Shown here: positions 12,471 through 63,700 of the stretch, piece by piece
How positions within the stretch are numbered: position 1 is the first letter of the stretch
Layout: every line of letters begins with the position of its first letter
Source of the DNA: Eledone cirrhosa
Taxonomy: Eukaryota
Reading direction: 5' to 3'
Length of the DNA: 64,000 nt
Assembly (NCBI GenBank): GCA_964016885.1
Contig: OZ024743.1
Span: forward strand, 301,072,001-301,136,000
Notes under the pieces: generated by a model
Told to the model about the DNA's origin: nothing
The model's database searches: none
Seen by the model: the letters and a program-made list of their open reading frames with translations, nothing else
Position numbers and translations under genes: made by a program

Positions 12471-12593
12471 TATATATATATATTATTAGAAATGTTAGCT
12501 ATCGCCGTATTTTGTCTAAAGAAATTAAAGAAATTATTTAGCCTGATGGTGGGGTTAAGAACCCTCGGAGAAATGGAAAAAGATGAGTATTTA

Positions 12594-12662
12594 CGTACAT
12601 GGGAGTCGAACCCACATCTTTGGTTATCCGGACCACTGTGCTACCATTTACACCAACATATC
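12594..12662 (-). pseudogene. tRNA-like sequence (pseudo-tRNA or SINE head) inside a ~105-bp inverted repeat
   Basis: Minus strand TGGTGTAAATGGTAGCAC-A-GTGGTCCGGATAACCA-AAGAT-GTGGGTTCGACTCCCAT gives D arm, anticodon-like arm and T arm. Acceptor stem poor. Confidence 0.6.
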
Positions 12663-27129: not shown

Positions 27130-29344
27130 ATAAACACATATATATATATAGTCTAACAAAGTTATTTCGCTGCACATCTGCAACATCATCAGTGGTACTA
27201 TTATGTTCCTCCTGTTATATTGTATGTCTACGCCATTTTTATTTTATCTGTTTATTTCTTTATTTATTTTTGTCTTCTTCTCTGCGCATGCGTTGTGTGT
27301 GTGTATTCGCGTTTGGGTGACTGTGTTATGGTTATTGTATTCTATATTAGTTTACTAGTGTGTGTTTATATGTGTGTGTTGTCATTGTGCTTGAGTATAT
27401 ATTTATTTATTTATTTATATTTCTCTTAAGTCAGTATTGTTTGTTTGGTTGTTATTCCATTCATTTTTGTCTGTTTAGCTTTGGCCTTCTAAGCTCTATT
27501 TCTCTTGCCTCTCTGATCTGCTGGGTCATTTCTATGTTTAGATATTATTTTAATTTCTATGTTGTCTATGTTACCGTCATGTTGTTGTCTGGCTTGTTCG
27601 TATATTACTGAACCGTTTTTTTTTTTGTCCTTTTAGTCCTAGTGTTGGTCTATCCTTTCTCATATGCTTCGAGCTGTCTCGCCAATGTATGTTGTTGTCA
27701 TGTTTCTGGAAGTACTCTCTGTACATGTTATGCTATAGACTACATTTCTAGTTTTATAGTTTATCTGGGGGGTTACTTTACATATAACACGTTTCCTATT
27801 AGTACGGTGGGTTTTCTTAAACGGGTATGTTTTGCTGATCAGGGATGTTATGGTAGTTCCTGGCTTTTCTACCACTTTAACCTTTAAGTGGGTCTTTCTC
27901 AGGGCCTTTCTTCACTGGTTAGCTAATATCCTCCAGGGTTAGCGTCCACGAACATGACACTCTGGTATCTCTGTTTGTCGTACCAAGAGGTGGCTTTCCC
28001 TATCTTATGTTTTGTCCTATCTAAGCATGATTTGCTCCTGTATAATGGGCAAATTCCTTTCATATCCAGTTCTATGAGGGTCTTATACTTCTCCGTGGCT
28101 CCTTTGTATACTCTGATTCTCTCTCTTCGCTTGTAGCCAGAGAACTGCAAGCGGTTAATGAAGTGTTGGATGTGTCTTTCCATTTCTGTTGGGTCGCACA
28201 TGCGGGACACGTTCCTTATCACTCGTACCAAGTCTGCTATCAGACTACGAAACTTAGTACTACTGGACATTGCTGAGTTTTTGAGTATCAGGTTTATGGA
28301 GGCCACGAGTTTAGCGTAGTGTGAGTGGAGAATTTGGGCCCTCTCGTCTATAGTGTTAATCCAGATTTCCGTTTCTAATAAAGGTAGTCTATTCTTAGGG
28401 TGTTTGTAAAGGTAGTCGATAGTTACAGTTATACTCTGGTATATGGAGTTAGCTATCTGTTGGATGCTTTCCATTGTGCTACATTCCAAATCATATTTGT
28501 TAGTATTCTCTTGAGGGTGTGTCCTTGTTACTATATTAATATCGTCTACGTAACGAGAGTACATGATGAGGTCTATGGAGCTCTCATCAAGGAGATATTT
28601 GTGTTTCCTTTCCCACCATACCATAACAAGATTGGCAACGTCAACAAAGATGTTGACGCCAATGGATGCTACTACATTTTGGGTGTAAATATTTTTCGTT
28701 GAATTTGAATATAAGGCCCTTTAGGGTAGTTTTAATACTAGTCCATATTGCATGCACGACAATTTTTCTTACCTGATCATTGTTTTGGGGGGTCCGTATG
28801 GCTTCGGTCCACCCAATCCACCTTCCCATGGGAGTCTTTTTTGCCATTGGGGTTATGGTGGGGGGGGGGGGGGGTCTACCTCTTATGGGTCTACTGGGGC
28901 AGAAACGGCTAAGGGCATGGCTGTCTAGGTACTCGGTGACATAGGTAAGTCTACGTAGGAGGCCCAGTTCATCTGTGTCGACGTCGCAGAACGCCACCCC
29001 ACTCTCATTGATCATCACACATTTTTCCAAAGCAAAATCAATGTAAATGGATGGGTACAGTGACACTACGTTCATACTGCCTATTATGCAGTAAGATAGG
29101 TTCTTGTTTTTGTTGCACTCATTGATTCTGCTGAGGAGGTCCACTGTCCTGTCACATACATCGGGGTACATCTTGATTATGGTGCGTATAACCATTGAGA
29201 GGAAGTAGGAGATCCTATAGTTGCTAGCGATATTGGCCCCGCATACAGGTCATGTTGGTGATCCTGTTGTCGGGTCGTCGATTGTCTTATGTTCTTTGCG
29301 GAGCCAATACAAGGGTGTCATGTCACTGTTAGACGCCTGGAAGT

Positions 29345-33005: not shown

Positions 33006-33549
33006 ACATAATTATGATTATGTCAATTTACAATATAAATATATATATTTGAACAAGCTATATATAGAGTTATACCGAACTAAAATTATGATTGTGTTAT
33101 TATACATTATAAACATATTAGCACAAAACTATATACAGAGATATGCCGAACTATAATTATGATTATCTTATTATACAATATAAACATATTTTCACCAACT
33201 ACATATAGAGATATATACTAAGTATTAATGGGGCAGTATACATTTAGTAAAGGATAACGATTACAATCCTAGATAATATATTCATACATGCATAACTATT
33301 AAATACATAGATATATATAAAAATGTAAACGCATGAATGATCAACAGTTCCAAATAAGGTCCGAAAAATGTACAGGTTTGATATCAAAACTATATTTAAA
33401 TCAGAGATAGAAAAATAAAGGTCTGGATCAAAGTTAATAATATCCCAAAAGCCATAGGTTATGTATATCAACCTGCCAACATGTTCTTAAACAAGTGTCA
33501 ATTCGTTCAAGCGTTGTTTCCATTATAAATGAGTATAAGATAAAGCATT

Positions 33550-36130
33550 ATTAGAGTTTTATAAGCCATTATGATTTATATTTTCAACAGGCTTGGTTGG
33601 TTACTGTTTTTTCCTGACCTTATGTGAGGCTTGGAATGTAGACAAAGCTTTATGGAGGCAGTTTGAGAATAATTCACTTTTTCTGTTAATTTAGTTTTCA
33701 TAATTATTAATTATCAATAGGGTCTCCATTGTACAAAGCGCGGAGTTACTTGATATACTTGAGTTGCGAAAAGCTCCACTATTACAAAGTTTCGTCCAAA
33801 AGATAGAGTATTTTAATTTTTTGTCTTTTAATGACCATATAAGCTGTGATAAAGACGTCGATGATTTCCTATTAGAATTCGAAAATGAGCATTTATGATT
33901 CGCAAATCTAGCCTTAAATATAGAAGAAGTCGATCCTATGTAGTTGTATGTGTTCTAATCAGTTTTTACGATGCATTTATACACCACATTACTGTCCAAA
34001 CAATTATTTTGCAGAGGGCAATCTGGTTTATTTCTACTATTACATTTTGATTTATTATTATTTATGATAACACTACTATTAAAATTATTATGCTGATTCT
34101 GCTTTAGAATTTTACTGTTTATTTTAGCAATGTTTTGGGCCATGTTTATAGTTGTAGATTAAGATAATATAATAGTGTGTCTATTAAAAATGGAATGGTA
34201 TTTATGTTGACTAGGGAAAGAGCTGTCCAAAGCTTTAAAGGATAAGTTTGCTATTGGTGTTCTTACTGTTACGGAAGGAGGGGGGGGGGGGTGTCAACCA
34301 TATAACTGATTTAGTTCTGGTTCTTTTCCTCGATTTGTTCACCGTATAGGTGTTTGAATTATAATTATTAGAATTTCGTTTATATATGCCGTTATTTTTA
34401 TCAGGATTAAGACTTGGATTATTATTATCTATATATTCTATATTATTCTCTTAACCTGCTCTTTTTATCGCTTCATTGTAGTATGCTGCATTATCATCAA
34501 ATACTACTTTATTGGCAGATATTCTATTAATGCGTTATTGCACACTATATGCAATTGCTTTTTTTTACAGAGTTAGGGTGATTGGAATAATAACTAACAT
34601 AATATAAGTTTTCATTGGGCTTATGAAAAGGGTAATAAAAGCCAGAGTTTAAGTTAAAAGTAACATCAAGGAAATTAACTATTTTTTTACCACTTTCTAC
34701 TTCTAACTTCAGGTCATACATTTTAAAGAATTCTATTATACTTTTCTTTACTCTCTTTAGTTCTATATTGTTGTGTTTGACCACCGTAAATAAAATGTCG
34801 TCCCTATATAAACCACCGGTAATCTCCGGCAGTTTTCTATTTATCATATTTAATATGAAAATCCCCAGAAGATCTGTGATTTGCGCTGAATCACATGCCC
34901 CCATAGTGATATCAAAGTTTCTATTACTATCAGAGCGGGTCCAATATTCGTTGTTGAAGTTAATAATAGTTCTTCTAGCTGTTAGTATGATATCAATTTC
35001 ATCCGTGGTTAGATCAGTATAATTATAAGCGTATGATAGTGCCTTATTTAGTAGGTTGGGCGTTATGGAAGAATAGTAGTTTGTTAAATCCATCTGGATG
35101 AATTTATGGTTTTTCTTATCATCTATATTCTTATACCATTCTATGACTTCGTTTGTATCTTTCCACAAGCTCAATTTAGATCTCAATTTAAGAGCAGGTA
35201 GAATTCTATCGATGATGTTTTTACTGATTACTCCAATATCCGATTTGGATGGAGCAATCAGTCTAATTGGTAGGTCTTCCTCGAAGTTTTTTTTTGTGAT
35301 CTTTGAAGTTAATCCGCGGCTGCCTAGGTATAAGTGGCTCAGTTCTTCCTTCTAATCCTATTTATATGCATCCTCATTAATTTCTGTAAGATCTTTAGCC
35401 GGGGCTTTTTTATGATTTTTCCTAAGTTCCTTTAAAATCAAGTTATTATATTCTTCTTTGTTTATCCCATATAAATTATTTGTTTTGTCCGATTTAACCA
35501 ATATTTTGTTAACTTATTTTTATTTCTGTGATTTTTTTCTTTTAGAGTTTAAAGGAATTGGTGACCTATGAAAGGGTTTTTCCTAATTTTAATTTGTTTA
35601 AGTATACCAAGCGTTCGGTTTCAAAATCCTCCAGAAGTTTGTTCTATGGAGGATTCTTTCTTGATTTAAATAAAGATTCGAAATGACTGCTGTTGGTTTT
35701 TCTTTCAGCATCTTTATTTTCGAAATGAAATGCTCGCCATCTCATTCTTCTTATAAAAGAGTTAGTTTGTTCGATAATTTTCCTCATGTATTCCTCATTT
35801 GAAGGTATTGGTATATCCTTGAGGGATGTCGGGAAGTTTAAGAAATCCATATTTATTGAATATGTAATCTATTGTATAGAAAAGCGCTCAACCAACTGGG
35901 AGCAATACATTTTAAAGAGATAAGCAAGATTCAATGAGTACATCAAAGAATGAGTTTTACAGTAGATTGAAAGCACTCTACAGTTAGATATTTTCAAGAG
36001 TTATTAATATTAAATTCAAATATTAATAAAATAGATGTTCTTGTGATCAATTAAATTGTATTATACATATTTCAGACATACTTGAATCAAGTTCAATAGT
36101 ACGTCCTCATCAGATGAAATGAAATGATAC
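33550..36130 (-). mobile_element. Decayed Neptune-like Penelope element
   Basis: SLKDIPIPS, RRMRWRAFHF, DITMGACDSAQ, GGLYRDD, VNFLDVTFNL, SNHP, KPDCPLQNNCL, YIGST. Degenerate hammerhead at ~36055-36120 upstream. Confidence 0.9.
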
Positions 36131-38915: not shown

Positions 38916-39808
38916 TAGCATTAAAGCCCGGCGTTGCTCGGGGTCCTTAAGTTACGAAAGTTAGGTTGTACCACCCATTTTATGGCACCACTTTTTTGTC
39001 TGCCAGGCACTGGGTGAATGAACTGCAGACCTGGAAGCACGAGCTGCGCCAGCAGTGACAATTGTAGTTTCGCCTATGGATATTATCTATGTGCAAAAAA
39101 GTGTTGAAATTTATTGTTTCACAGTACTTGCGCAACACGCGCGTAGACGATGCCAGCCGAACAACAGAGCTGCGATGGAGTTGTTCTGCATGGTTGTCTG
39201 TGTGTTTTCTAAATTTAAACAGTAGGGAGGGTTGTGATATGAGGGAGAGTTAGCTGTTGTTTCTAGCAGGTTTAGTGACATCATAGAGGATATGTGTTTT
39301 CTAAATTTAAGACAGTAGGGAGTGTGATATGGGGGAGAGTTAGCTGATGTTTCTAGTAGGTTTAGTGACATCATAGAAGATATGTTTTCTAAATTTAAGA
39401 AAGTAGGGAGGGGTGTTATATGGGGGAGAGTTAGCTGCTGCTTCTAGCAGGTTTAGTAACCTCATAGAGGATATGTGTTTTCTAAATTTAAGACAGTAGG
39501 GAGTCGTGTGAACGGACAGTATCACCATCAAGCTTGCAAAGAGAAAGTAGCAGAGAGTATTAAGTTGTATAGATTTTGAATGTTAGTAGAAAGAGTTCAG
39601 CAGTTTAAATGAGAGAGAAAAATCGTAAAATATTGAGTTTTATCTATTTTTTGCGTAATTGTGGGGGAAATTGAAAAATTATCTGCGTCAAGACGCAATT
39701 GAAGCTATTTCCAATAATAAACTGTAAATTTTAATTGAAGAAATTCTATATCGTATATTTCTATAACGAAGGAGCATGACCACACACTGAGCTTTATAGA
39801 TAATGATA
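38913..39808 (-). mobile_element. Non-autonomous Helitron-like element with internal ~90-bp tandem repeat
   Basis: Plus strand begins TACTAGCATTAAAGCCCGGCGTTGCTCGGG (reverse of hairpin plus CTAG). TTTTCTAAATTTAA...GAGAGTTAGCTG...GTTTAGT unit repeated ~3.3 times at ~39200-39505. Confidence 0.6.

Positions 39809-42422: not shown

Positions 42423-42427
<5 letters not shown>
42333..42427. repeat. 95-bp near-perfect hairpin
   Basis: TTTTGGATGGCCATTGACTC...CTTTGACA ggttt TGTCAAAG...GAGTCAATGGCCATCCAAAA. Confidence 0.9.
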
Positions 42428-42491
<64 letters not shown>

Positions 42492-42606
42492 CATACATAT
42501 ATATACATTCACATACATACATATATATGTATACACACACATATATATACACATACATATATATACATATACATAGACACACACATACATATATATATAT
42601 TTATAA

Positions 42607-42657
<51 letters not shown>

Positions 42658-42674
42658 TATATATATATATATAT

Positions 42675-45600
42675 ACAATTAAGTTAAAAATGTACATCCA
42701 CATATGTATACTGAAATACTAGTATGCATATGAATACACACACGTGTACATATGTAGATGTACCGAGTTTTTCACTGGACACTTTACTGTGAGTGTCCAG
42801 CTATTCTGTATGTAAACACACAGACAAACCGGTTTTTAGAGTCATACTGGTTTTCGAGGAAACACCTTTCCTCTATTCTCCAGAAAGCCAGACAAGGAAT
42901 ATTGGACTAGTTTCGATGTTGTTACATCTCATCAGCAACATTTACCTATCTTCCGGCCTTTCTAGAGAATCGTAAAAGCACATATCGTTATATGCTTTTT
43001 CTATGAAAATTAGTAGTGGGCAGACTAATTTGCATAGAGCGTGAGTACATACCGGTTCGGCGGAGACGATAAAAACAAATAACGAAACGAAATTAAATTT
43101 CGTTTCGTTTGTAACTCACTTTTGTATGACTGACGCTTAAACAATTAAGTTAAAAATGTACATCCACATATGTATACTGAAATACTAGTATGCATATGAA
43201 TACACACACGTGTACATATGTAGATGTACCGAGTTTTTCACTGGACACTTTACTGTGAGTGTCCAGCTATTCTGTATGTAAACACACAGACAAACCGGTT
43301 TTTAGAGTCATACTGGTTTTCGAGGAAACACCTTTCCTCTATTCTCCAGAAAGCCAGACAAGGAATATTGGACTAGTTTCGATGTTGTTACATCTCATCA
43401 GCAACATTTACCTATCTTCCGGCCTTTCTAGAGAATCGTAAAAGCACATATCGTTATATGCTTTTTCTATGAAAATTAGTAGTGGGCAGACTAATTTGCA
43501 TAGAGCGTGAGTACATACCGGTTCAGCGGAGACGATAAAAACAAATAACGAAACGAAATTAAATTTCGTTTCGTTTGTAACTCACTTTTGTATGACTGAC
43601 GCTTAAACAATTAAGTTAAAAATGTACATCCACATATGTATACTGAAATACTAGTATGCATATGAATACACACACGTGTACATATGTAGATGTACCGAGT
43701 TTTTCACTGGACACTTTACTGTGAGTGTCCAGCTATTCTGTATGTAAACACACAGACAAACCGGTTTTTAGAGTCATACTGGTTTTCGAGGAAACACCTT
43801 TCCTCTATTCTCCAGAAAGCCAGACAAGGAATATTGGACTAGTTTCGATGTTGTTACATCTCATCAGCAACATTTACCTATCTTCCGGCCTTTCTAGAGA
43901 ATCGTAAAAGCACATATCGTTATATGCTTTTTCTATGAAAATTAGTAGTGGGCAGACTAATTTGCATAGAGCGTGAGTACATACCGGTTCAGCGGAGACG
44001 ATAAAAACAAATAACGAAACGAAATTAAATTTCGTTTCGTTTGTAACTCACTTTTGTATGACTGACGCTTAAACAATTAAGTTAAAAATGTACATCCACA
44101 TATGTATACTGAAATACTAGTATGCATATGAATACACACACGTGTACATATGTAGATGTACCGAGTTTTTCACTGGACACTTTACTGTGAGTGTCCAGCT
44201 ATTCTGTATGTAAACACACAGACAAACCGGTTTTTAGAGTCATACTGGTTTTCGAGGAAACACCTTTCCTCTATTCTCCAGAAAGCCAGACAAGGAATAT
44301 TGGACTAGTTTCGATGTTGTTACATCTCATCAGCAACATTTACCTATCTTCCGGCCTTTCTAGAGAATCGTAAAAGCACATATCGTTATATGCTTTTTCT
44401 ATGAAAATTAGTAGTGGGCAGACTAATTTGCATAGAGCGTGAGTACATACCGGTTCAGCGGAGACGATAAAAACAAATAACGAAACGAAATTAAATTTCG
44501 TTTCGTTTGTAACTCACTTTTGTATGACTGACGCTTAAACAATTAAGTTAAAAATGTACATCCACATTTCTGGAGAATAGAGGAAAGGTGTTTCCTCGAA
44601 AACCAGTATGACTCTAAAAACCGGTTTGTCTGTGTGTTTACATACAGAATAGCTGGACACTCACAGTAAAGTGTCCAGTGAAAAACTCGGTACATCTACA
44701 TATGTACACGTGTGTGTATTCATATGCATACTAGTATTTCAGTATACATATGTGGATGTACATTTTTAACTTAATTGTTTAAGCGTCAGTCATACAAAAG
44801 TGAGTTACAAACGAAACGAAATTTAATTTCGTTTCGTTATTTGTTTTTATCGTCTCCGCTGAACCGGTATGTACTCACGCTCTATGCAAATTAGTCTGCC
44901 CACTACTAATTTTCATAGAAAAAGCATATAACGATATGTGCTTTTACGATTCTCTAGAAAGGCCGGAAGATAGGTAAATGTTGCTGATGAGATGTAACAA
45001 CATCGAAACTAGTCCAATATTCCTTGTCTGGCTTTCTGGAGAATAGAGGAAAGGTGTTTCCTCGAAAACCAGTATGACTCTAAAAACCGGTTTGTCTGTG
45101 TGTTTACATACAGAATAGCTGGACACTCACAGTAAAGTGTCCAGTGAAAAACTCGGTACATCTACATATGTACACGTGTGTGTATTCATATGCATACTAG
45201 TATTTCAGTATACATATGTGGATGTACATTTTTAACTTAATTGTTTAAGCGTCAGTCATACAAAAGTGAGTTACAAACGAAACGAAATTTAATTTCGTTT
45301 CGTTATTTGTTTTTATCGTCTCCGCTGAACCGGTATGTACTCACGCTCTATGCAAATTAGTCTGCCCACTACTAATTTTCATAGAAAAAGCATATAACGA
45401 TATGTGCTTTTACGATTCTCTAGAAAGGCCGGAAGATAGGTAAATGTTGCTGATGAGATGTAACAACATCGAAACTAGTCCAATATTCCTTGTCTGGCTT
45501 TCTGGAGAATAGAGGAAAGGTGTTTCCTCGAAAACCAGTATGACTCTAAAAACCGGTTTGTCTGTGTGTTTACATACAGAATAGCTGGACACTCACAGTA

Positions 45601-48600
45601 AAGTGTCCAGTGAAAAACTCGGTACATCTACATATGTACACGTGTGTGTATTCATATGCATACTAGTATTTCAGTATACATATGTGGATGTACATTTTTA
45701 ACTTAATTGTTTAAGCGTCAGTCATACAAAAGTGAGTTACAAACGAAACGAAATTTAATTTCGTTTCGTTATTTGTTTTTATCGTCTCCGCTGAACCGGT
45801 ATGTACTCACGCTCTATGCAAATTAGTCTGCCCACTACTAATTTTCATAGAAAAAGCATATAACGATATGTGCTTTTACGATTCTCTAGAAAGGCCGGAA
45901 GATAGGTAAATGTTGCTGATGAGATGTAACAACATCGAAACTAGTCCAATATTCCTTGTCTGGCTTTCTGGAGAATAGAGGAAAGGTGTTTCCTCGAAAA
46001 CCAGTATGACTCTAAAAACCGGTTTGTCTGTGTGTTTACATACAGAATAGCTGGACACTCACAGTAAAGTGTCCAGTGAAAAACTCGGTACATCTACATA
46101 TGTACACGTGTGTGTATTCATATGCATACTAGTATTTCAGTATACATATGTGGATGTACATTTTTAACTTAATTGTTTAAGCGTCAGTCATACAAAAGTG
46201 AGTTACAAACGAAACGAAATTTAATTTCGTTTCGTTATTTGTTTTTATCGTCTCCGCTGAACCGGTATGTACTCACGCTCTATGCAAATTAGTCTGCCCA
46301 CTACTAATTTTCATAGAAAAAGCATATAACGATATGTGCTTTTACGATTCTCTAGAAAGGCCGGAAGATAGGTAAATGTTGCTGATGAGATGTAACAACA
46401 TCGAAACTAGTCCAATATTCCTTGTCTGGCTTTCTGGAGAATAGAGGAAAGGTGTTTCCTCGAAAACCAGTATGACTCTAAAAACCGGTTTGTCTGTGTG
46501 TTTACATACAGAATAGCTGGACACTCACAGTAAAGTGTCCAGTGAAAAACTCGGTACATCTACATATGTACACGTGTGTGTATTCATATGCATACTAGTA
46601 TTTCAGTATACATATGTGGATGTACATTTTTAACTTAATTGTTTAAGCGTCAGTCATACAAAAGTGAGTTACAAACGAAACGAAATTTAATTTCGTTTCG
46701 TTATTTGTTTTTATCGTCTCCGCTGAACCGGTATGTACTCACGCTCTATGCAAATTAGTCTGCCCACTACTAATTTTCATAGAAAAAGCATATAACGATA
46801 TGTGCTTTTACGATTCTCTAGAAAGGCCGGAAGATAGGTAAATGTTGCTGATGAGATGTAACAACATCGAAACTAGTCCAATATTCCTTGTCTGGCTTTC
46901 TGGAGAATAGAGGAAAGGTGTTTCCTCGAAAACCAGTATGACTCTAAAAACCGGTTTGTCTGTGTGTTTACATACAGAATAGCTGGACACTCACAGTAAA
47001 GTGTCCAGTGAAAAACTCGGTACATCTACATATGTACACGTGTGTGTATTCATATGCATACTAGTATTTCAGTATACATATGTGGATGTACATTTTTAAC
47101 TTAATTGTTTAAGCGTCAGTCATACAAAAGTGAGTTACAAACGAAACGAAATTTAATTTCGTTTCGTTATTTGTTTTTATCGTCTCCGCTGAACCGGTAT
47201 GTACTCACGCTCTATGCAAATTAGTCTGCCCACTACTAATTTTCATAGAAAAAGCATATAACGATATGTGCTTTTACGATTCTCTAGAAAGGCCGGAAGA
47301 TAGGTAAATGTTGCTGATGAGATGTAACAACATCGAAACTAGTCCAATATTCCTTGTCTGGCTTTCTGGAGAATAGAGGAAAGGTGTTTCCTCGAAAACC
47401 AGTATGACTCTAAAAACCGGTTTGTCTGTGTGTTTACATACAGAATAGCTGGACACTCACAGTAAAGTGTCCAGTGAAAAACTCGGTACATCTACATATG
47501 TACACGTGTGTGTATTCATATGCATACTAGTATTTCAGTATACATATGTGGATGTACATTTTTAACTTAATTGTTTAAGCGTCAGTCATACAAAAGTGAG
47601 TTACAAACGAAACGAAATTTAATTTCGTTTCGTTATTTGTTTTTATCGTCTCCGCCGAACCGGTATGTACTCACGCTCTATGCAAATTAGTCTGCCCACT
47701 ACTAATTTTCATAGAAAAAGCATATAACGATATGTGCTTTTACGATTCTCTAGAAAGGCCGGAAGATAGGTAAATGTTGCTGATGAGATGTAACAACATC
47801 GAAACTAGTCCAATATTCCTTGTCTGGCTTTCTGGAGAATAGAGGAAAGGTGTTTCCTCGAAAACCAGTATGACTCTAAAAACCGGTTTGTCTGTGTGTT
47901 TACATACAGAATAGCTGGACACTCACAGTAAAGTGTCCAGTGAAAAACTCGGTACATCTACATATGTACACGTGTGTGTATTCATATGCATACTAGTATT
48001 TCAGTATACATATGTGGATGTACATTTTTAACTTAATTGTTTAAGCGTCAGTCATACAAAAGTGAGTTACAAACGAAACGGAATTTAATTTCGTTTCGTT
48101 ATTTGTTTTTATCGTCTCCGCTGAACCGGTATGTACTCACGCTCTATGCAAATTAGTCTGCCCACTACTAATTTTCATAGAAAAAGCATATAACGATATG
48201 TGCTTTTACGATTCTCTAGAAAGGCCGGAAGATAGGTAAATGTTGCTGATGAGATGTAACAACATCGAAACTAGTCCAATATTCCTTGTCTGGCTTTCTG
48301 GAGAATAGAGGAAAGGTGTTTCCTCGAAAACCAGTATGACTCTAAAAACCGGTTTGTCTGTGTGTTTACATACAGAATAGCTGGACACTCACAGTAAAGT
48401 GTCCAGTGAAAAACTCGGTACATCTACATATGTACACGTGTGTGTATTCATATGCATACTAGTATTTCAGTATACATATGTGGATGTACATTTTTAACTT
48501 AATTGTTTAAGCGTCAGTCATACAAAAGTGAGTTACAAACGAAACGAAATTTAATTTCGTTTCGTTATTTGTTTTTATCGTCTCCGCTGAACCGGTATGT

Positions 48601-50908
48601 ACTCACGCTCTATGCAAATTAGTCTGCCCACTACTAATTTTCATAGAAAAAGCATATAACGATATGTGCTTTTACGATTCTCTAGAAAGGCCGGAAGATA
48701 GGTAAATGTTGCTGATGAGATGTAACAACATCGAAACTAGTCCAATATTCCTTGTCTGGCCTTCTGGAGAATAGAGGAAAGGTGTTTCCTCGAAAACCAG
48801 TATGACTCTAAAAACCGGTTTGTCTGTGTGTTTACATACAGAATAGCTGGACACTCACAGTAAAGTGTCCAGTGAAAAACTCGGTACATCTACATATGTA
48901 CACGTGTGTGTATTCATATGCATACTAGTATTTCAGTATACATATGTGGATGTACATTTTTAACTTAATTGTTTAAGCGTCAGTCATACAAAAGTGAGTT
49001 ACAAACGAAACGAAATTTAATTTCGTTTCGTTATTTGTTTTTATCGTCTCCGCCGAACCGGTATGTACTCACGCTCTATGCAAATTAGTCTGCCCACTAC
49101 TAATTTTCATAGAAAAAGCATATAACGATATGTGCTTTTACGATTCTCTAGAAAGGCCGGAAGATAGGTAAATGTTGCTGATGAGATGTAACAACATCGA
49201 AACTAGTCCAATATTCCTTGTCTGGCTTTCTGGAGAATAGAGGAAAGGTGTTTCCTCGAAAACCAGTATGACTCTAAAAACCGGTTTGTCTGTGTGTTTA
49301 TATACAGAATAGCTGGACACTCACAGTAAAGTGTCCAGTGAAAAACTCGGTACATCTACATATGTACACGTGTGTGTATTCATATGCATACTAGTATTTC
49401 AGTATACATATGTGGATGTACATTTTTAACTTAATTGTTTAAGCGTCAGTCATACAAAAGTGAGTTACAAACGAAACGGAATTTAATTTCGTTTCGTTAT
49501 TTGTTTTTATCGTCTCCGCTGAACCGGTATGTACTCACGCTCTATGCAAATTAGTCTGCCCACTACTAATTTTCATAGAAAAAGCATATAACGATATGTG
49601 CTTTTACGATTCTCTAGAAAGGCCGGAAGATAGGTAAATGTTGCTGATGAGATGTAACAACATCGAAACTAGTCCAATATTCCTTGTCTGGCTTTCTGGA
49701 GAATAGAGGAAAGGTGTTTCCTCGAAAACCAGTATGACTCTAAAAACCGGTTTGTCTGTGTGTTTACATACAGAATAGCTGGACACTCACAGTAAAGTGT
49801 CCAGTGAAAAACTCGGTACATCTACATATGTACACGTGTGTGTATTCATATGCATACTAGTATTTCAGTATACATATGTGGATGTACATTTTTAACTTAA
49901 TTGTTTAAGCGTCAGTCATACAAAAGTGAGTTACAAACGAAACGAAATTTAATTTCGTTTCGTTATTTGTTTTTATCGTCTCCGCCGAACCGGTATGTAC
50001 TCACGCTCTATGCAAATTAGTCTGCCCACTACTAATTTTCATAGAAAAAGCATATAACGATATGTGCTTTTACGATTCTCTAGAAAGGCCGGAAGATAGG
50101 TAAATGTTGCTGATGAGATGTAACAACATCGAAACTAGTCCAATATTCCTTGTCTGGCTTTCTGGAGAATAGAGGAAAGGTGTTTCCTCGAAAACCAGTA
50201 TGACTCTAAAAACCGGTTTGTCTGTGTGTTTACATACAGAATAGCTGGACACTCACAGTAAAGTGTCCAGTGAAAAACTCGGTACATCTACATATGTACA
50301 CGTGTGTGTATTCATATGCATACTAGTATTTCAGTATACATATGTGGATGTACATTTTTAACTTAATTGTTTAAGCGTCAGTCATACAAAAGTGAGTTAC
50401 AAACGAAACGGAATTTAATTTCGTTTCGTTATTTGTTTTTATCGTCTCCGCTGAACCGGTATGTACTCACGCTCTATGCAAATTAGTCTGCCCACTACTA
50501 ATTTTCATAGAAAAAGCATATAACGATATGTGCTTTTACGATTCTCTAGAAAGGCCGGAAGATAGGTAAATGTTGCTGATGAGATGTAACAACATCGAAA
50601 CTAGTCCAATATTCCTTGTCTGGCTTTCTGGAGAATAGAGGAAAGGTGTTTCCTCGAAAACCAGTATGACTCTAAAAACCGGTTTGTCTGTGTGTTTACA
50701 TACAGAATAGCTGGACACTCACAGTAAAGTGTCCAGTGAAAAACTCGGTACATCTACATATGTACACGTGTGTGTATTCATATGCATACTAGTATTTCAG
50801 TATACATATGTGGATGTACATTTTTAACTTAATTGTTTAAGCGTCAGTCATACAAAAGTGAGTTACAAACGAAACGAAATTTAATTTCGTTTCGTTATTT
50901 GTTTTTAT
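42675..50908. repeat. 466-bp tandem array carrying one hammerhead ribozyme per unit (putative non-LTR retrozyme); left arm ~4.06 units, right arm ~13.6 units in opposite orientation
   Basis: Units start ACAATTAAG at 42675, 43141, 43607, 44073 and 44539 (period 466). Orientation flips at ~44567 and the array runs to 50908. ORF track repeats every 466 nt (4 on +, 13 on -). Both ends abut (TA)n. Confidence 0.97.
44954..45039 (+). ncRNA. Type I hammerhead ribozyme (first of 13 + strand copies at 466-nt spacing; 4 more on - strand in the left arm)
   Basis: AATGTTG-CTGATGA(44984-90)-GATGT aaca ACATC-GAAAC-TA-GTC-CAATATT: canonical core, 5-bp stem II, palindromic ACTAGT stem III, stem I extended by CTAGAAAGGCCGGA/TCTGGCTTTCTGG. 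Predicted cleavage after C45014. Confidence 0.93.
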
Positions 50909-50930
50909 ATATATATATATATATATATAT

Positions 50931-52373
<1,443 letters not shown>

Positions 52374-53119: not shown

Positions 53120-55014
53120 CAATACATAAGCTGTTTTATAAATAATTTTGTCATACCTTATAATAATGCAACTTCCATTTAAATAGTTGATTTGGTAGTG
53201 AAATTGTTATGACAGTTATATAGAAAGAAAAACGAAGATGAAAAGAAGAAGATGAAGAGATGTATGTAAATAAAAAAAGAAGAAGATGAAGAGATGTATG
53301 TAAAGAAAAACAACAGAGCGAGATAGAGAGAGAAGGAGATATGGGAGAGAGAAATACATTGAGGAAGTGAAAAAATATAGTAGGCAGCTTTTGGACAGAT
53401 GATCATCGTATATGTGAGAGGTTAAGGAGGGAAGGGATACAGTTAAACTAGCCGACACATAAATCACGTCGAGTGTAGAGGAGAAAAAGAAAGAAAGATG
53501 ATATATTTAAAATATATTAAAAATATATTATGTCTCATCCATTTGAATTATCAATTTTTATGAATTAGGTATTATAATGTAAATATCAGTATTCATGAAT
53601 GAGACACATATCCATAATGTGTGAAAAAATGACCCCATGCTTAGTTTAAAAATTCTTAGGTCTATAAGCAAAATCTGAGATAAAACTTCAAACATAAGTA
53701 TATATGCATTCTCATGAAAAAAGAAAAAAGAGAAAAGAGAAGGTTATCTCAAATTCAAGTTGATAAATATAGACACACATGTGAACCTACGTGATATGCT
53801 CCAAAGATTCTTATATTTCATGAAAATCTTCATTGCGTTACAAAAGATTCCACCCTACATATATTTACATACATATATACATATATATAGACATAACATA
53901 TATAAGATATACATTAACATTTAAAGTAACATTCCTGCCTCAATTGCATGATTATCGATCAAGCATAGAATAGACAACAGATATCAATATTAAAAATTAA
54001 AAACGCCAAGAATATCTTCGTCACTCCACAGAGTATCTAGGGACGCAAGAGAACATAGTATGCCACGCATATCAGTCACATAAAATCAGAATCAAAAGCA
54101 AACAAAACCAAAATTGTTCACCAAGCCTTATTTAGCAGAAATCATTCAAAACTTATTCTACAAATGCTCTTATATTTATTATAGAAGTTTATCCAGCTTA
54201 AAAATTTATTCAAAAGATTGGGAACATCGCCAATTTTAGGGTAGTTTATTTAATCTCATTAATTATATATTCATGCAGAAAGGTTTTAAAAAAAATTGAA
54301 GGAATCGAAATATTTATCGCCAAGTTTCATAAATAGTTAAATATCTTAAGTAAATATACTACATTTTATACTACATTTTAAATTTATATTTATATTTAAA
54401 AGTTGAGTTCAATCTATGTCTGCAGCAGCTGAATAAATTGGTTCGTAAATTAAGGGAATTTTTAGATTTTAGTATAAAGAATAGCTCCTCCGCGCAGAGG
54501 TCACATGTCTCAGAAGAGGAATTAAAAGGAATCCCTTTTGAGACTATATTCCAAACCATCGAATATCCAACTTTATCATGTTTAAGTTGCCAGAGTAAGC
54601 CTGACAGCGATGTTGAAGATTTTTTATTTGGATCCGTGAAAGAATTTTTGTGATTATTATAGCGAAGTTTAAATTCTGTCGAGGTGGAACCAACATAATT
54701 AAAAGAATTTAAATCAGTTTTAACATTACAGTTGTATATTATATTTTTAACTAAGCAATTGTTATTTAGCGGACATTTAGATCTATCTCTACAGTTACAG
54801 TTTTTTACTTGAATATTGTTTAGGCTATTTTCGGTATTTTGGCTAGGTTTTAGATTCCTATTATTTATTCTATTAATATTTTGTGCTAAATTTTTTGTGG
54901 ACGAGTACGTTAATTTTATAGTATGTCTATTGAAAATTGAGTGATACTTATGTGTTCTAGGGAAGCGTTTGTCAAGAGCATTAAAAAATAGTTTAGCGAT
55001 GTGGGTTTTAATGT

Positions 55015-56073
55015 TTAGTGAGAAGGGGGGGGGGGGGCAAACCATATTATATTTCTAGTTCTATTTCTTTTCTGGTTTTTGGAATTATTGTAGTGCTTTC
55101 TATTATAGTTGTTAAAGTTGTTACTGTAATTAAAATTGTTGTTATTTTGGTTAGTTTGTCTATTATCGATGTACATAATGTTATCACTATATCCTGCTCT
55201 AGCTAACGCTTCATTATAATACTGGGCTTTTTCGTCAAAAATATTTTTATTGGAAGAGATTCTAGAGATACGTTTTTGAACAGAGTTCACTATAGTATTT
55301 TTGACAAATCTGGGGTGATTGGAGCTAAAATTGACATAATTCAAGTTTTCATTTAACTTGTGAAATGGATAGTGAAGACATGTGTTGAGATTTAATGTTA
55401 CGTCTAGGAAATTGACTATTCTATGGTTATTCTCAATTTCTATTTTTAGATTAAAGTAATTAAAAAATTGTATAATTTGTTTTCTTTTCTTATTTAGTTC
55501 AGAGTTATTATTTTCAATAAGTAAAAGCATGTCATCTCTATATAAACCTCCGGTAACACCGGGTATTTTCCTATGCAGCGAATTAATTATAAATAGGCCC
55601 ACAAGGTCCGTTACCTGAGCTGAGTCTGATGATCCCATAGTAATGTCGAAATTATTATCTCTATCTGCCCTAGTCCATAGTTGGTTATTAAATTCTATCA
55701 AAGTTTTCCTTGCCGATAATATAATGTGCATTTCATTGCTAGTTAGGTCTGTATGCTTGAATGCGTAATTTAGTGCCTTATTTAGTAGATTAGGGGTAAT
55801 GGATGAATAGTAGTTAGCAATATCTAGTTGAATAAATTTATTATTATTGTTATATTTAATTTCATTAAACCACTCAATGACCTCCCCAGTTCCCTTCCAC
55901 AAGGTCAAGCCAGGTAAACAATTCAAGTCCTTAATTTGCTGTATCACTCTGTCTAGAATGTTCTTGCTAAGTTTACCAAGGTCAGATTTTGATGGTGCAA
56001 TCAACCTGACTGGCAAGTCATTTTCAAAATTTCTCTTGTGATCTTTCATATTGATCTTGGGTTTCCTGGGCAC
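55015..56073 (-). pseudogene. PLE reverse transcriptase domain
   Basis: LDIANYYSSI, ITMGSSDS and YRDD catalytic motifs. Frameshift at a poly-G run near 55025. Confidence 0.88.
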
Positions 56074-56673
56074 GAAAGGTTATGTTTTGTTCTCAATTTC
56101 CAACTCATGCATTATACGTTCAGCCTTATCTGCTACCTTGTACTTTTTCCTTAGTTCTTTCAGTATGAGGCCATTATACATGTCTTTATCCACTCCATAG
56201 AGGTTGTCGGTTTTGTCCGATTTCACCAAGATCTTCTCTGTTCTCTCTCAGCTCGCAATGTTATCCTTAATGCTTTTCAGATATTCCTGGCCATTGAAGT
56301 TTCTCTTAAATCTGACTCCTTGTATGATAGAAATTATATCGTTTTCAAAATCATTCAAAAGTTTGTTGGGGGGTGGATTTTTTTTAGATTTGAAGACTCT
56401 GTCTAGGTCTGAGACATTTTCATTTACATTAGATTTAGATTTATCAAAGTGGAATGCACGCCACCTGATTCTCCTTATAAAGGAGTCTGATTTATCTATT
56501 AGTTGTTTAATAAAGTCCTTGTTTCTAGGTAGAGGTATGTCTTTTAGAGAAGAAGAGATCTTAAAGAATTCCATTTTTTCAGTTATAATATAAAGCACTC
56601 AACGGTATCCCAGAAATATATATAACGAAATAAATATGGTTTTATAAATATAGTTTCCATTTGTTTAATATCG

Positions 56674-57274: not shown

Positions 57275-58470
57275 AATATATATACACATATATGTGTACA
57301 TAGACACATACATACACATCAATATTCACTCGTACAAAAATATACATACTTGCAAAGAGAAAAGCGTGCTAATTGTAGTTATGGCAAAAAGAAGGTAAAG
57401 TAACATTGTAGTAGTGAAATGAGAGAAACTAGGATCTAGGATCAAATGATTGCAGCAGCTGAGAAGGAGTAAGATTGTTGGTAGATGAGGTATTTACAGA
57501 CAATTGTGTGGTATAGACTTGTGAAGGAAATAGTATACTTAATGAATATATTTCTGTGGGTAGTAGGTATCCTAATTTAAAGCTATGTTATGTTGGTTCG
57601 ATTCACGGAGGTTTGAATCTTATGAATTTAGTGGCTATTCTATGTCTGCAGAAGATAGATCTTTCTAACTTATTATTAAGTAGCCTTTTAACATTTCTAA
57701 GGATATACAATAGCTCAAGATCACACAGCCCGCAATAGGACATACCTGTACTATAGGTTTTAGCAGCCGACATCTTCGACCAGTTGATAGTGTAGCTAGC
57801 GTTGCTGTCCTTCAATTCCCATATTTTTCTGGCGAGAGTGGTGGAACCCAAAATTGCTCGATTTTTCATTGAGTGCCTGTGCACATACCATCTTTTCTTA
57901 AAAGAACCCGCGGTGGATCCTATGTAATTCCAGGTGGAGTTACCCGAGATGACAGTGCACATGTACACCAGGCTCGAATCGAGACATCTATTCGCCAATG
58001 GGCACCTATCTGGGAGGTGACAGTTGCAGTTTGAGGCGCTATTTTGTGCAGCTTTTACATTCCTATTTAGTACCCTGTTATAAGTGGGTTGTGATATATG
58101 CCCATGGGGTTTTGCTGCTGCGCGTTTGTATGCGCTTGTGGTTGTGATGTTGTGATGAGTTTGTGCTTATGTATAGGTGCAATTGATTTACTTGAGATAT
58201 TTCTGTGGTTGATCTTACGTATGTGTGATTCTATGTTAGCTGCTGTTGAGAAAGAGAGTTTAATAGTAGATCTATTGAGTATTTTGTGATATATATGCGA
58301 GATAGGGAAGTGTTTATCTATTAGTTTAAAGAATGTAGAGGGCAGTCTAGTTTTTATAGAGGAGTTGAATATTGGGTTGAACCATAGGTATTTTCTTTGT
58401 CTGTTTCTTCTATTATTTCTAGGGTTTACGTTATTAGTGTTTTGGCCGTTTACTCTAGGTGTTACAGCAT
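56705..58470 (-). mobile_element. 5'-truncated PLE (endonuclease plus 3' UTR)
   Basis: WFNP motif near 58380, CHLPDRCPLANRCL, VYMC, NYIGSTAGSFKKRW, CGLC. Degenerate long-stem-II hammerhead at ~56755-56865. Confidence 0.82.
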
Positions 58471-58599
58471 ACCCGCAGCATCACTATGAAAACGCCTTGT
58501 TGAGTCAAACCAAGCCAAGCGTTAATATCATCCACTACCTGGAATACCATAACTGGACTTCACCTAAATGGACTGCATTTAACTATTATTTGTTAATCC

Positions 58600-61979: not shown

Positions 61980-62682
61980 ATGTTGAAAAGGTAACACACT
62001 AGACATATACAGTGCGCTATCAATAAAACAGGGAAAAAACCACCAGTGTATGGAATCTATAAACTGTGATAGGCAGACTATAGACACGATAATTAAAAAT
62101 AAAAATTAAAGCGTAAATAAATACCTCTATAACTATGTAACACACGTATAAATCCAAAGAGATCTGTTTCGCCTGTCATTTGTTGCCAGAAATGGAATAA
62201 ACGGTTCCTCAGCATGTGTAAGGCTATACATTTCAGACAACACTAAGATCATTTTAAAAGGGACTGTCCAGCTACACGTGGGAGAGAGAAGTCACAGCGT
62301 ATTTAAGGGCAGTGAACCAGTGGCCTCTGAGGCACGGGCTGCTAGAAAGGGCAGCCCAAAACCACTCAGAGAAGTGTGCTCAACCAAACAACGAGATAGG
62401 AAAGACTGTTATAAGGAGCGAAATATCACGATAACTTAACGGAGCCACAGAGCCTCGACATTCCCTCGACATTCCCTGTAAATAATGTGCTCAGAGGAGA
62501 AGAAATCCTTAGCGCACTGTATATCTCTAGTGTGTAACCTTTTCAACATATTGTATTTTAAAGATCTCAGGATTTCTTTGCCTTTGAGCACATGATTTAC
62601 AGGGAATGGCGAGGCTCTACGGCTCGGTAAATTTATCGTGATATATATATATATACATATATATATTTATTCATTATTGCTC

Positions 62683-63700
62683 TTCAGGCTATAACAGAGG
62701 AGTTCAAGACCGGCTGCTCATGGGAACTCCTATACGCAGATGACCTAACGCTCATAGCTGAATCAATGGCCGAGCTAGAGAAGAAATTCCAAACATGGAA
62801 GCACGGCCTAGAATCAAAAGGCCTTAAAATTAACATGGCTAAGACTAAAGTTCTAGTTTGTAGGAAAGAAAATAAGGCGCCGGTCCCTTCCGGGAAATGG
62901 CCATGCTCAGTGTGTAGGAAAGGCGTAGGTAGAAACTCCATTTTATGTCCCAAATGCAAAGTATGGGTGCATAAATGATGTAGTGGGATCACAGGTAAGC
63001 TAACTAAGAACACAGATTTTACATGTGGCCGGTGCTCTGGTGCAATAAGTAGCAGCAAGTGCCCACAAAATACTAGCTCTTTCAACTGCGCAGAGGGTTC
63101 TATAGAAATGGTGGACAGCTTCCGTTACCTGGGTGACAAAATCAGCAGTGGGGGAGGGTGCGCCGAAAGTACAGAACTGGATGGAAAAAGTTCAGAGAGT
63201 TTATACCACTATTAGCCGCTAAAGGATTCTCCCTAAAAGTGAAAGGCAGGTTGTATGATGCCTGCATATGAACAGCAATGTTGCATGGCAGTGAGACATG
63301 GGCATTGTGTGCAGAGGATATACGCAGACTAGCGAGGAACGAAGCTTGCATGCTCCGCTGGATGTGTAATAGTAATATACGCGAACGGCAAAGCATAAAC
63401 GAACTAAGGAAAACATTAGAAATAAGAGGGATCAGATGTTGTTTACTCGAGAGAAGGCTACGTTGGTATGGTCACGTGATGCGCATGGAAGACGACAGCT
63501 GTATAACAAAGTGCAGGGCAATAAAGATAGATGGTAGCCACGGAGTAGGCAGACCCAGAAAAACCTGGGACGAGCTGATAAATTCCGACCTCACACACTT
63601 ACACCTCCCCAAGACAATGTCACTGGACCGAGACCTTTGGCGGTACTCAGTAACAGAGAAGACCCGCGTTACCTAAATACAAAGTAAAACCTACTACATT
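62683..63700 (+). mobile_element. 5'-truncated RTE-clade LINE with a Cys-rich insert
   Basis: ELLYADDL, GLKINMAKTKVLV, KWPCSVCRKGVGRNSILCPKCKVWVHK, FRYLG, MLHGSETW, RRLRWYGHVMRM, GRPRKTW. In-frame stops and frameshifts. Confidence 0.88.

Follow-up and report, generated by a model that had tools for sequence, protein, structure and literature searches.

Head-to-head insertions with two fixed ends: anatomy pointing to probable PLE retrotransposition of a hammerhead retrozyme of Eledone cirrhosa

Metazoan non-LTR retrozymes, of which axolotl HHR_Amex1 and the newt satellite 2 type are examples, are described in PMC7229834 as non-coding tandem units of 170-400 nt that carry a type I hammerhead with a one-pair palindromic stem III, pair strongly with themselves, have a GC content below 50% and show target duplications of more than 4 bp when these are visible. 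The family reported here is alike in all of these respects, but its unit measures 466 nt. The original prediction of a monomer at or above the usual size is thus borne out against that range, yet not against the 51-972 bp given by Li, Clavereau and Pollet (bioRxiv 10.64898/2026.07.22.740005). Expression and circles have been shown for the retrozymes of PMC7229834; those of the present element are putative.

With regard to the copying enzyme, Penelope-like elements (PLEs) were called "a strong candidate" in PMC7229834, and the preprint of Li, Clavereau and Pollet treats animal retrozymes as non-autonomous PLE passengers, states that the mechanism remains to be elucidated and reports cleavage of one of nine dimers. 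The evidence presented in that preprint is co-occurrence and pLTR homology; ours is insertion anatomy, with no pLTR homology found. In vitro, a PLE reverse transcriptase (RT) starts at two internal sites equal to the tail seen in the genome and elongates each of the two strands of the target, with uncut RNA as the main substrate and cleavage not needed (PMC11167929). The preference of PLEs for (TA)n, their inverted copy and their tail at a single end have also been described (PMC8557442). The PLEs of these studies (PAc/Poseidon in PMC11167929; Naiad, Hydra, Neptune and Nematis in PMC8557442) resemble our retrozyme in their inverted 5'-truncated copy, one-ended tail, tandem copies, two internal RT start sites downstream of the hammerhead, and AT-rich or (TA)n targets, and differ from it in that the retrozyme has no ORF and a tail of ~70 nt as against the 30-40 bp reported (PMC11167929, PMC8557442).

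The main text of PMC7229834 does not describe head-to-head insertions, two fixed priming sites or (TA)n targeting, and that of the 2026 preprint does not treat tails, priming, head-to-head arms or Octopus. Our literature search returned no two-armed, two-end anatomy in a retrozyme and no cephalopod retrozyme, although the supplements of both papers may list such cases. The element class itself is already known; what appears to be new is this anatomy on a retrozyme, and the question that it addresses is which enzyme copies animal retrozymes, and how.

The window array and its hammerheads

The window, by which we mean the whole 64,000-nucleotide stretch of contig OZ024743.1 that was analysed, holds an array with a period of 466 bp at 42675-50908 (Table 1; unit position 1 is window position 45015), with (TA)n at the outer end of each arm. 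Both the period and the coordinates had been predicted correctly, but the array is not the single plain tandem then envisaged: it consists of two head-to-head arms, with four cores on the minus strand and 13 on the plus strand. The inversion of the arms had been overlooked. The predicted near-identity of the units holds, as eight of the 15 full cleavage-to-cleavage units are identical and the 8.2 kb of array contain nine internal mismatches, at four unit positions.

Table 1. Features of the window array (window coordinates).
Feature	Position	Strand	Remark
Type I hammerhead, first plus copy, every 466 bp	44974..45028	+	predicted cleavage after 45014 (GUC); putatively active
Left arm	42675..44567	-	4.07 units, unit position 202 to site B (~230) at outer end
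Right arm	44567..50908	+	13.6 units, unit position 19 to site A (302) at outer end
Head-to-head junction of both arm 5' ends	44567..44567	.	1-nt overlap
(TA)n target, left side	42427..42675	.	
(TA)n target, right side	50906..50930	.	
Single 466-nt monomer between successive cleavage sites	45015..45480	+	predicted branched fold -161.6 kcal/mol, computed z -10.5
Four hammerhead cores of minus arm	42905..44333	-	at 42905, 43371, 43837, 44303
Thirteen hammerhead cores of plus arm	44984..50606	+	
Small hairpin, unit 222-235	45236..45249	+	loop and 3' side hold putative priming site B (227-233)
Long hairpin, unit 262-290, then unpaired U-rich stretch	45276..45316	+	stretch holds putative priming site A (298-303)
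Tail, ~70 nt between B and A	45244..45316	+	at one outer end of insertion only
12-nt box, unit 335-346	45349..45360	+	matches host U6/U6atac/MRP element; putative function
TATA-like element	45393..45398	+	44 nt after box start; putative

The unit has a GC content of ~36% and, read as a circle, no ORF, its longest ATG frame being only 50 aa, which agrees with the absence of a credible ORF noted originally; the RT plus GIY-YIG ORF of an autonomous PLE is not present in it. A Pfam search of eight window frames returned nothing for seven of them, and no LTR-like flanks were seen in the locus alignments. Assignment to a known class, as a protein-free small element belonging to a non-coding type I hammerhead tandem family, is supported.

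Exact hammerhead cores are found in 17/17 window units, each hammerhead combining a 7-bp stem I with an internal loop, a CUGAUGA core, a 4-5-bp stem II, GAAA and a palindromic ACUAGU stem III, and the layout of the core bears out the position predicted for cleavage, after C45014. The minus strand of the unit has no hammerhead core. While the 17 cores are exact, the description of these ribozymes as canonical does not extend to stem III, which is one pair with a palindromic tetraloop; a reading as C-TA-G was rejected, as it would close a 2-nt loop. The scan proposed for verification gave a match to Rfam HH9 at E 8.7e-8, which, like the z score of the monomer fold, exceeds chance expectation, but its 37.3 bits lie below the gathering score of 52, and at gathering level there is no match in the window. 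Hammerheads with a palindromic one-pair stem III reportedly act in pairs, as double hammerheads (PMC7229834, PMC4209133), and since the stem III of the unit is of this dimer type, its RNA should cleave poorly as a monomer. In the computed cofold the dimer comes out only slightly ahead (-18.2 vs 2 x -7.9 kcal/mol).

A sister family (family 2), 61% identical to that of the window (family 1) in pairwise alignment, keeps 104 of 146 aligned base pairs of the fold, 18 of them via changes on both sides, with slid controls at 30-58%. Within the young family 1 the core shows no lower variability than average (0.027 vs 0.022).

Insertion ends across the genome

The dispersed arrays that were expected of a genome-wide search do exist: the genome contains 2,603 exact hammerhead cores, and the family loci are spread over many contigs, 70 of them having been analysed. 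Multi-locus alignments and core counts support a young, dispersed, non-coding type I hammerhead tandem family. Locus counts are among the matches listed, 127 further matches being left out, and exclude secondary clusters, matches shorter than 35 nt or below 88% identity, and two arms that are cut off.

Two arms are present at 47 of the 70 loci, and all 47 run minus-then-plus, i.e. head-to-head. Nearly every visible arm 3' end (110/115) lies at one of two fixed sites ~70 nt apart, site B at unit ~230 (53 arms, ends spanning 227-233) and site A at ~302 (298-303); the two windows together make up 5% of the unit, and neither site coincides with the hammerhead cleavage site. At two-armed loci with both ends visible, one arm ends at A and the other at B in 42/45, in a left/right orientation of 21:21, and A+A or B+B occurs in 0. 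A set chosen by position only, 19 of the first 20 loci on one contig, comprises 12 A+B loci, one other, two cut off and four single-armed; at least five of the 23 single-armed loci carry a 6-13 nt stub of the other site. Arm 5' ends, by comparison, are uniform over the unit (KS p 0.51, n = 116), with seven of 116 at most 10 nt from the cleavage site and about five expected. At least one cleavage site is crossed by 112/122 arms and at least two by 78, and the median arm is 1.2-2.5 units long. Ten further family-1 insertions, outside these counts, mostly fit the two-end rule, and one end (at L129) lies elsewhere.

(TA)n adjoins 98 of the 110 A/B ends. Target duplications, for which 45 loci were examined, are unreadable in pure (TA)n, the window included. 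We restricted the evidence to non-TA cases and set aside a looser "informative" flag (22/45). Unambiguous duplications of 13 and 15 bp (microhomology included) are present at the non-TA sites L066 and L099, and suggestive ones of 12-14 bp at L054, L083, L095 and L096.

The same genome supplies a control in an intact, very young PLE family (1217-aa frame, 4146-bp unit), which has one short and one long end at 14/14 two-armed loci, all in (TA)n, one locus without a right end having been dropped; one-of-each coupling is thus counted here for retrozyme and host PLE alike. Host PLE-type end tails measure 43-100 nt. Family 2 insertions, for their part, end at two hairpins homologous to those of family 1. 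The retrozyme ends and start sites are U-rich, whereas the start sites of described PLEs are AC-rich and the ends of the intact PLE A/C-rich. Inverted arms with a two-site tail are the signature of tail and inversion known from PLEs, in this case borne by a retrozyme, and copying by a PLE RT, as originally proposed, is supported by the inverted arms, the fixed ends, the (TA)n targets, the 13-15-bp duplications and the match to the anatomy of the intact PLE.

We consider it highly probable that this is a non-autonomous non-LTR retrozyme whose copying relies on a PLE enzyme that primes at two coupled sites. Unit transcripts might stem from an internal promoter box of the U6 type, failing which read-through would supply them, and paired hammerheads would cut the multimers to monomers or dimers to be ligated to circles, with uncut multimers as an alternative template. 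As read from the genomic anatomy, a PLE RT/GIY-YIG complex would cut (TA)n in a staggered manner, leaving a ~12-bp duplication, and cDNA would be primed from both DNA ends at two fixed RNA sites, A and B. Both RTs would run through several units and stop at random, and the cDNA ends, joined with little or no overlap, would yield what the anatomy displays, concatemers placed head-to-head of which one end bears the ~70-nt tail; some arrays later grow by duplication. Several points weigh against this reading: the lack of homology to PLEs and the U-rich ends, in-register sharing that is not general, the growth of arrays after insertion, the variability of the hammerhead core and, in earlier work, the preference for uncut RNA (PMC11167929) and the cleavage of just one dimer in nine (2026 preprint). 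The insertions record the footprint of the enzyme at base resolution, with target, stagger, both start sites and one-of-each coupling, and exact predictions for an in vitro assay follow from them. The test for two fixed ends and A+B pairing is applicable to any retrozyme family in any assembly.

The RNA template and the U6-type box

That both arms of an insertion derive from one source is supported: of 60 arms, 27 have their sibling as the strictly closest arm, 26 have it tied for closest and seven are closer to another arm, and private variants are fixed across both arms in 16/47 loci. Unit variants are in register from the 3' ends at L057, L060 and L069. In-register sharing is not general across loci, with 49/71 agreeing at shift 0, 37/63 at shift -2 and 21/32 at shift +2, and the window array does not show it (1/4). 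Blocks of variants that recur, both within the window array and within other long ones, show growth after insertion, and because arrays grow in this way unit number is no measure of RT run length. A linear RNA of 1.6 units with later expansion could yield the window array.

We lean towards a circular RNA template as likely, if by no great measure. Alternatively, and somewhat short of an even chance in our estimate, PLE two-site priming might act on an uncut linear read-through multimer, the ribozyme being slow or incidental and long arrays arising via unequal exchange. The weak stem III and the recurring variant blocks would suit such a template, as would the finding that cleavage is unneeded (PMC11167929), the 4-kb host PLE arrays with at least 13 units within one arm, which are hard to obtain in one RT run, and L069, where two variants are confined, in each arm, to the unit nearest the 3' end and are followed by three units without them, a pattern impossible from a monomer or dimer circle. 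It accounts less readily for the lack of a 5'-end pile-up at any site, for the star-like arrays L042, L093, L054 and L099, in which a private variant is fixed and none recurs, for the variants of L057 and of the minus arm of L061, which follow a period of 2, and for 432G, which is fixed in all 17 window units while the 12 other loci that share the same 29-mer are only 95.4-98.5% identical to the window; the core and stem III, moreover, are kept in family 2. We note that the linear multimer departs from our best explanation only in the processing and RT-run steps.

Newt satellite 2 has an snRNA-type Pol II promoter and the Schistosoma satellite a Pol III promoter, both as cited in PMC2220036, and retrozymes seem to lack promoters according to a review (PMC7761336). 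Our unit is like the two satellites in being a hammerhead repeat with an internal promoter-like element, and differs from them in that its box matches an upstream element of the host U6, U6atac and MRP genes and is absent from U1/U2 (0/8). In the host this element stands at -77 to -79 in five of 12 U6/U6atac/MRP copies (four exact, one with one mismatch), the other seven lacking it there and looking like retro-copies; one U6 gene matches the unit 14-of-14. The box is invariant in family 2, and its PWM scores 19.9 bits with 0/1000 shuffles, for a pattern devised after seeing the unit. The spacing from box start to TATA is off that of the host, at 44 nt in family 1 (degenerate) and 43 nt in family 2 vs 47-49. 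With respect to internal terminators the units fall short, the sense strand holding two T5 and two T4 runs in family 1 and four T4 runs in family 2, and the distal TTAYYTCCCTT element common to host U1/U2/U6 is absent from both units. Transcription would presumably start near 45423-45427, ~55 nt before the next cleavage site, and a functional box would account for strong expression that needs no read-through from host genes.

In a tentative and rather doubtful elaboration, one circle, made by the ribozyme from RNA of its own U6-type promoter, would serve both RT sites of a PLE dimer, which would begin at two fixed points of its structure ~70 nt apart, roll round it and displace each other's cDNA, so that each insertion would be a pair of concatemers placed head-to-head. 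If true, such double rolling-circle twin priming would explain both the spread of animal retrozymes and the PLE inverted copy with its one-ended tail.

Partner element and other routes of insertion

Comparison of the intact PLE 3' region, from one full-length family, with the retrozyme families revealed no homology (best non-TA match 16 nt, E 0.04), a DNA search with the same region gave no match, its words probably being too common, and the 314 kb of flanking sequence contain no further PLE-type end with homology to the unit. This lack of sequence homology to PLEs suggests that the RNA is recognised by its structure, or that the partner has not been sampled. At L041 a retrozyme A arm is joined bluntly and head-to-head to an arm of a sister PLE whose end is the short site, an arrangement in keeping with the rule, and this locus (1/23) is a weak lead to the partner PLE. 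L046 is joined in tandem to a fragment of a different PLE family, and L048, L039, L074 and L076 join unrelated DNA, so that the joins may be deletions. A 5-kb gap inside the L123 array, considered as a partner, proved to be an RTE-type LINE.

A further possibility, which we regard as improbable, is that the unit represents a pLTR that has come loose from an autonomous, unsampled PLE and moves in cis or as truncated copies of that element. Homology of retrozymes to the pLTR is reported for 24/57 Xenopus families (bioRxiv 10.64898/2026.07.22.740005), and the present genome has many insertions of PLE 3' ends that are two-armed and very short. Against this, no fixed junction between unit and PLE frame is shared among the 70 loci, the joins at L041 and L046 are to different families and at different unit positions, the sole long in-array gap is the LINE just mentioned, and the hammerhead of the unit has stems of the loop-loop type, unlike the minimal hammerheads of host PLE-type ends.

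LINE-type twin priming is still less probable. In this scenario one primer would use a defined RNA 3' end, for instance a Pol III stop at the U-run 296-300, together with an internal second primer, and the fall of site A on a T5 run and the presence of a U6-type box are in keeping with it. The L1 version likewise produces an inverted 5' part, a short-overlap join and a target duplication. In L1 twin priming, however, the poly(A) end serves one primer and the position of the other is variable, whereas the retrozyme has two internal sites, both fixed, and is inverted as a rule. A second primer placed by chance microhomology would not stay at B in 53 arms; the A end of family 2 is located beyond the T4 runs of that family, the majority of arms are longer than a unit, the insertions have no poly(A) tails, and the host PLE obeys the same rule.

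A reading as ordinary satellite DNA, or as a fold-back artefact of the assembly, to which the arrays of 30-36 or more units with heterogeneous blocks might point, is refuted in the main, for the family does not consist of few long arrays with arbitrary ends but occupies many contigs with fixed ends, target duplications and short median arms, and the same end rule holds in two other families. The retrozyme may be pictured as a protein-free jumping RNA, spread as head-to-head array pairs through an octopus-like genome.

Two opposed arms of a dispersed retrozyme

The original prediction was of a single tandem array of 17 hammerheads; the 17 exact cores and the 466-bp period stand, but the array is made of two opposed arms, with 13 cores on the plus strand and 4 on the minus strand. 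The units differ at few sites, as had been claimed: of the 15 full units 8 have the same sequence, and the array's 9 internal mismatches are confined to 4 unit positions (numbered from window 45015, the base after the predicted cut, as position 1). The unit holds no ORF longer than 50 aa, in keeping with the predicted lack of a credible frame, nor any hammerhead core on its minus strand, and it folds far more strongly than its shuffles (z -10.5). A profile scan, proposed as a check, agreed in part; Rfam HH9 matches the unit at E 8.7e-8, with 37.3 bits, which is under the HH9 gathering score, and a gathering-level Rfam scan of the window returned no hammerhead and a single tRNA-like match away from the array. 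Stem III consists of one pair and a palindromic tetraloop, and excerpts of PMC7229834 and PMC4209133 describe such hammerheads as cutting poorly as monomers and well as dimers.

The dispersed arrays anticipated from a genome-wide search are indeed there, and 70 loci were analysed. The 30-nt core occurs exactly 2,603 times in the 3.0-Gb assembly (reversed control, 0), and the spread of the first 100 matches over 20 loci suggests, as a rough estimate, some 500 loci. A second, older family (unit ~489 nt, 61% identical to family 1) has a variable internal (TA)n hairpin and the cleavage triplet GUA and is the more abundant; the core, stem III and overall fold are common to both families, and a pattern spanning the two has 13,616 matches. 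More diverged relatives were seen at 74-80%.

Features of the window and of other loci in the same genome (plain numbers are window positions; L and C numbers are loci and contigs)
Feature	Coordinates	Strand	Remarks
466-bp array	42675-44567		Tandem Repeats Finder, 4.1 copies; reverse complement of the next
466-bp array	44567-50908		Tandem Repeats Finder, 13.6 copies
Palindromic insertion	50930-52238		two-armed, nearly perfect; arms 99% complementary
Minimal PLE-type hammerhead of the palindrome	51117	minus	
Minimal PLE-type hammerhead of the palindrome	52137	plus	
Further minimal hammerheads	22897, 36816, 38244, 41053, 41609		
PLE fragments, two or more lineages	110-682, 9853-11424, 27923-29249, 34545-35351, 54371-56598, 57603-58480		RT and GIY-YIG pieces
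Non-LTR RT frame	16012-18357		Pfam RVT_1
RTE-like fragment	62631-63676		named by likeness to L123
tRNA-like match	12591-12660	minus	31.8 bits, marginally above the Rfam gathering score; may be the head of a SINE
90-bp minisatellite	39202-39511		short
71-bp minisatellite	33008-33215		short
Family 2 retrozyme	L103-L122, L052:9330-9830		
RTE-type LINE	L123:2447-7268		insert separating the arms of a retrozyme array; open frame of 1040 aa
Intact-PLE array	L178-L180 (C28:42006241-42063860)		head-to-head; at least 15 copies of the 4146-bp unit (2 minus, 13 plus listed); follows the short/long end rule
Chimeric-looking locus	L041:2974-5027		retrozyme A arm head-to-head with a sister PLE arm ending at the short site

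Two coupled ends and the Penelope-like footprint

The loci comprise the window, 38 taken among the 150 best matches listed, 19 from the first 20 on contig C1, selected by position, and 12 carriers of a window variant. Their arms end 3' at two fixed places: of 115 such ends in view, 57 fall at site A (294-304), 53 at site B (225-237) and 5 elsewhere, and the cleavage site coincides with neither. In the folded unit, site B lies in a small hairpin and site A in an unpaired stretch 3' of a long hairpin. All 47 two-armed loci (of 70) run minus-then-plus, and where both ends are in view (45 loci) 42 combine one A with one B and the other 3 include a single odd end; a pair of like ends never occurs. 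Arm 5' ends are evenly spread round the unit (KS p 0.51), and the 47 arm junctions mostly show 0-3 nt of overlap or gap, the remainder overlapping by up to 25 nt or holding filler of up to 27 nt. (TA)n adjoins 98 of the 110 A/B ends, two insertions outside (TA)n have duplications of 13 and 15 bp with microhomology counted in, and among 23 single-armed loci at least 5 retain a short stub of the opposite site. Family 2 arms end at places homologous to A and B; both ends are clean in 5 of 18 distinct loci, A with B in all five, and several other loci have ambiguous ends inside the unit's own TA run.

An intact host Penelope-like element (PLE; 4146-bp unit, 1217-aa frame) served as positive control, in a sample of 15 adjacent minus/plus pairs from the match listing. 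In 14 of 14 pairs with both ends available, a short end is combined with a long one at a spacing of 43-59 nt, always in (TA)n; other hammerhead-bearing ends in the flanks lie ~58-100 nt apart. For PLEs, PMC8557442 describes an inverted truncated copy, a (TA)n bias and a tail of 30-40 bp that is mostly confined to one end. PMC11167929 shows that the tail spans the interval from one internal RT start site to another and that both target strands are cut and extended, with the protein predicted to be dimeric. Since the retrozyme ends match this rule of short and long end, tail, inversion and (TA)n, the retrozyme bears a PLE footprint, which supports the predicted copying by a PLE RT. The 3' region of the tested intact PLE has no sequence in common with the retrozyme. 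This PLE may belong to Neptune or Nematis, judging from its Cys-rich linker and the account in PMC8557442, and its family gave 7,495 first-look candidates and many open frames of ~1217 aa. The chimeric-looking locus is a single case and a weak lead to the partner PLE. Beside the window array lies a palindromic insertion whose two ends, the long one near 50930 and the short one near 52238, are in (TA)n; the TA run at the long end contains the retrozyme array. A PLE protein from a flank best matches an Octopus vulgaris protein (67%), so that an octopod host is probable.

The element has every sequence-level feature tested of the metazoan non-LTR retrozymes and behaves as a PLE passenger rather than an autonomous PLE. 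As features of the sequence, we regard as established the motif, dispersal, youth, the target and the length of its duplication, the two coupled fixed ends, the randomness of 5' ends and the recurrence of the end rule in a host PLE. Units would be transcribed, cleaved and ligated to circles, and rolling reverse transcription with strand displacement, presumably by a PLE-type enzyme, would follow. The retrozyme class and its PLE link are already in print (PMC7229834 and bioRxiv 2026.07.22.740005), as are tail and inversion for PLEs; a search of main texts, largely from open journals, yielded no description of this anatomy on a retrozyme or of a cephalopod retrozyme.

Source and template of the arms

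The two arms of an insertion usually share a source. Of 60 arms, 27 are strictly nearest to their sibling arm, for 26 the sibling ties with others, and for 7 another arm is nearer; at 16 of 47 loci both arms are fixed for variants that occur at no more than 2 of the 70 loci. Unit-level variants run in register from the 3' ends at L057, L060 and L069 and partly at L061; L052, L098 and the window lack such register.

We lean slightly towards an RNA circle as the template. At least one cleavage site is crossed by 112 of 122 arms and at least two by 78, arm 5' ends pile up at no site, a star-like pattern marks several long arrays (L042, L093, L054, L099), two arms have period-2 patterns, and 432G is present in all 17 window units. 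The 12 other loci with the 432G 29-mer are only 95.4-98.5% identical to the window and are thus not immediate donors. Against a circle, L069 requires a template of several different units, recurring variant blocks indicate that arrays grew later, the core varies at least as much as the remainder of the unit in the young family 1, and a linear RNA of 1.6 units followed by expansion could give the window array.

A promoter-like box

Comparison of the two families shows a 12-mer at unit 335-346 as their longest invariant block. The same octamer-like box stands at -77 to -79, with a TATA at -30, in 5 of 12 host U6/U6atac/MRP copies examined (three U6, RNase MRP and, with one mismatch, U6atac), the others probably being retro-copies; none of 8 U1/U2 promoters carries the box. 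The unit is identical to one U6 gene over 14 of 14 bases, and on a four-gene matrix, a pattern devised after seeing the unit, its site outscores all 1000 shuffles, the family 2 site merely tying with the best. Transcription would be predicted to start at 409-413, just 5' of the hammerhead.

That the box works as a promoter is a tentative reading which we hold somewhat doubtful. The TATA-like element is 4-5 nt closer to the box than in host genes, T4/T5 runs should partly stop Pol III, and the box pairs with a second conserved block as an RNA stem, so that it could instead be an RNA motif. PMC2220036 cites internal promoters in the Schistosoma repeat and newt satellite 2, and PMC7761336 says that retrozymes seem promoter-less.

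Host U1/U2 promoters (L188-L190, L203-L207) carry, near -57, an element different from the box of the U6/U6atac/MRP genes (L191-L193, L196, L197), and a distal pyrimidine-rich element near -260 is common to U1, U2 and some U6. These host elements may be of use in cephalopod small-RNA expression tools.
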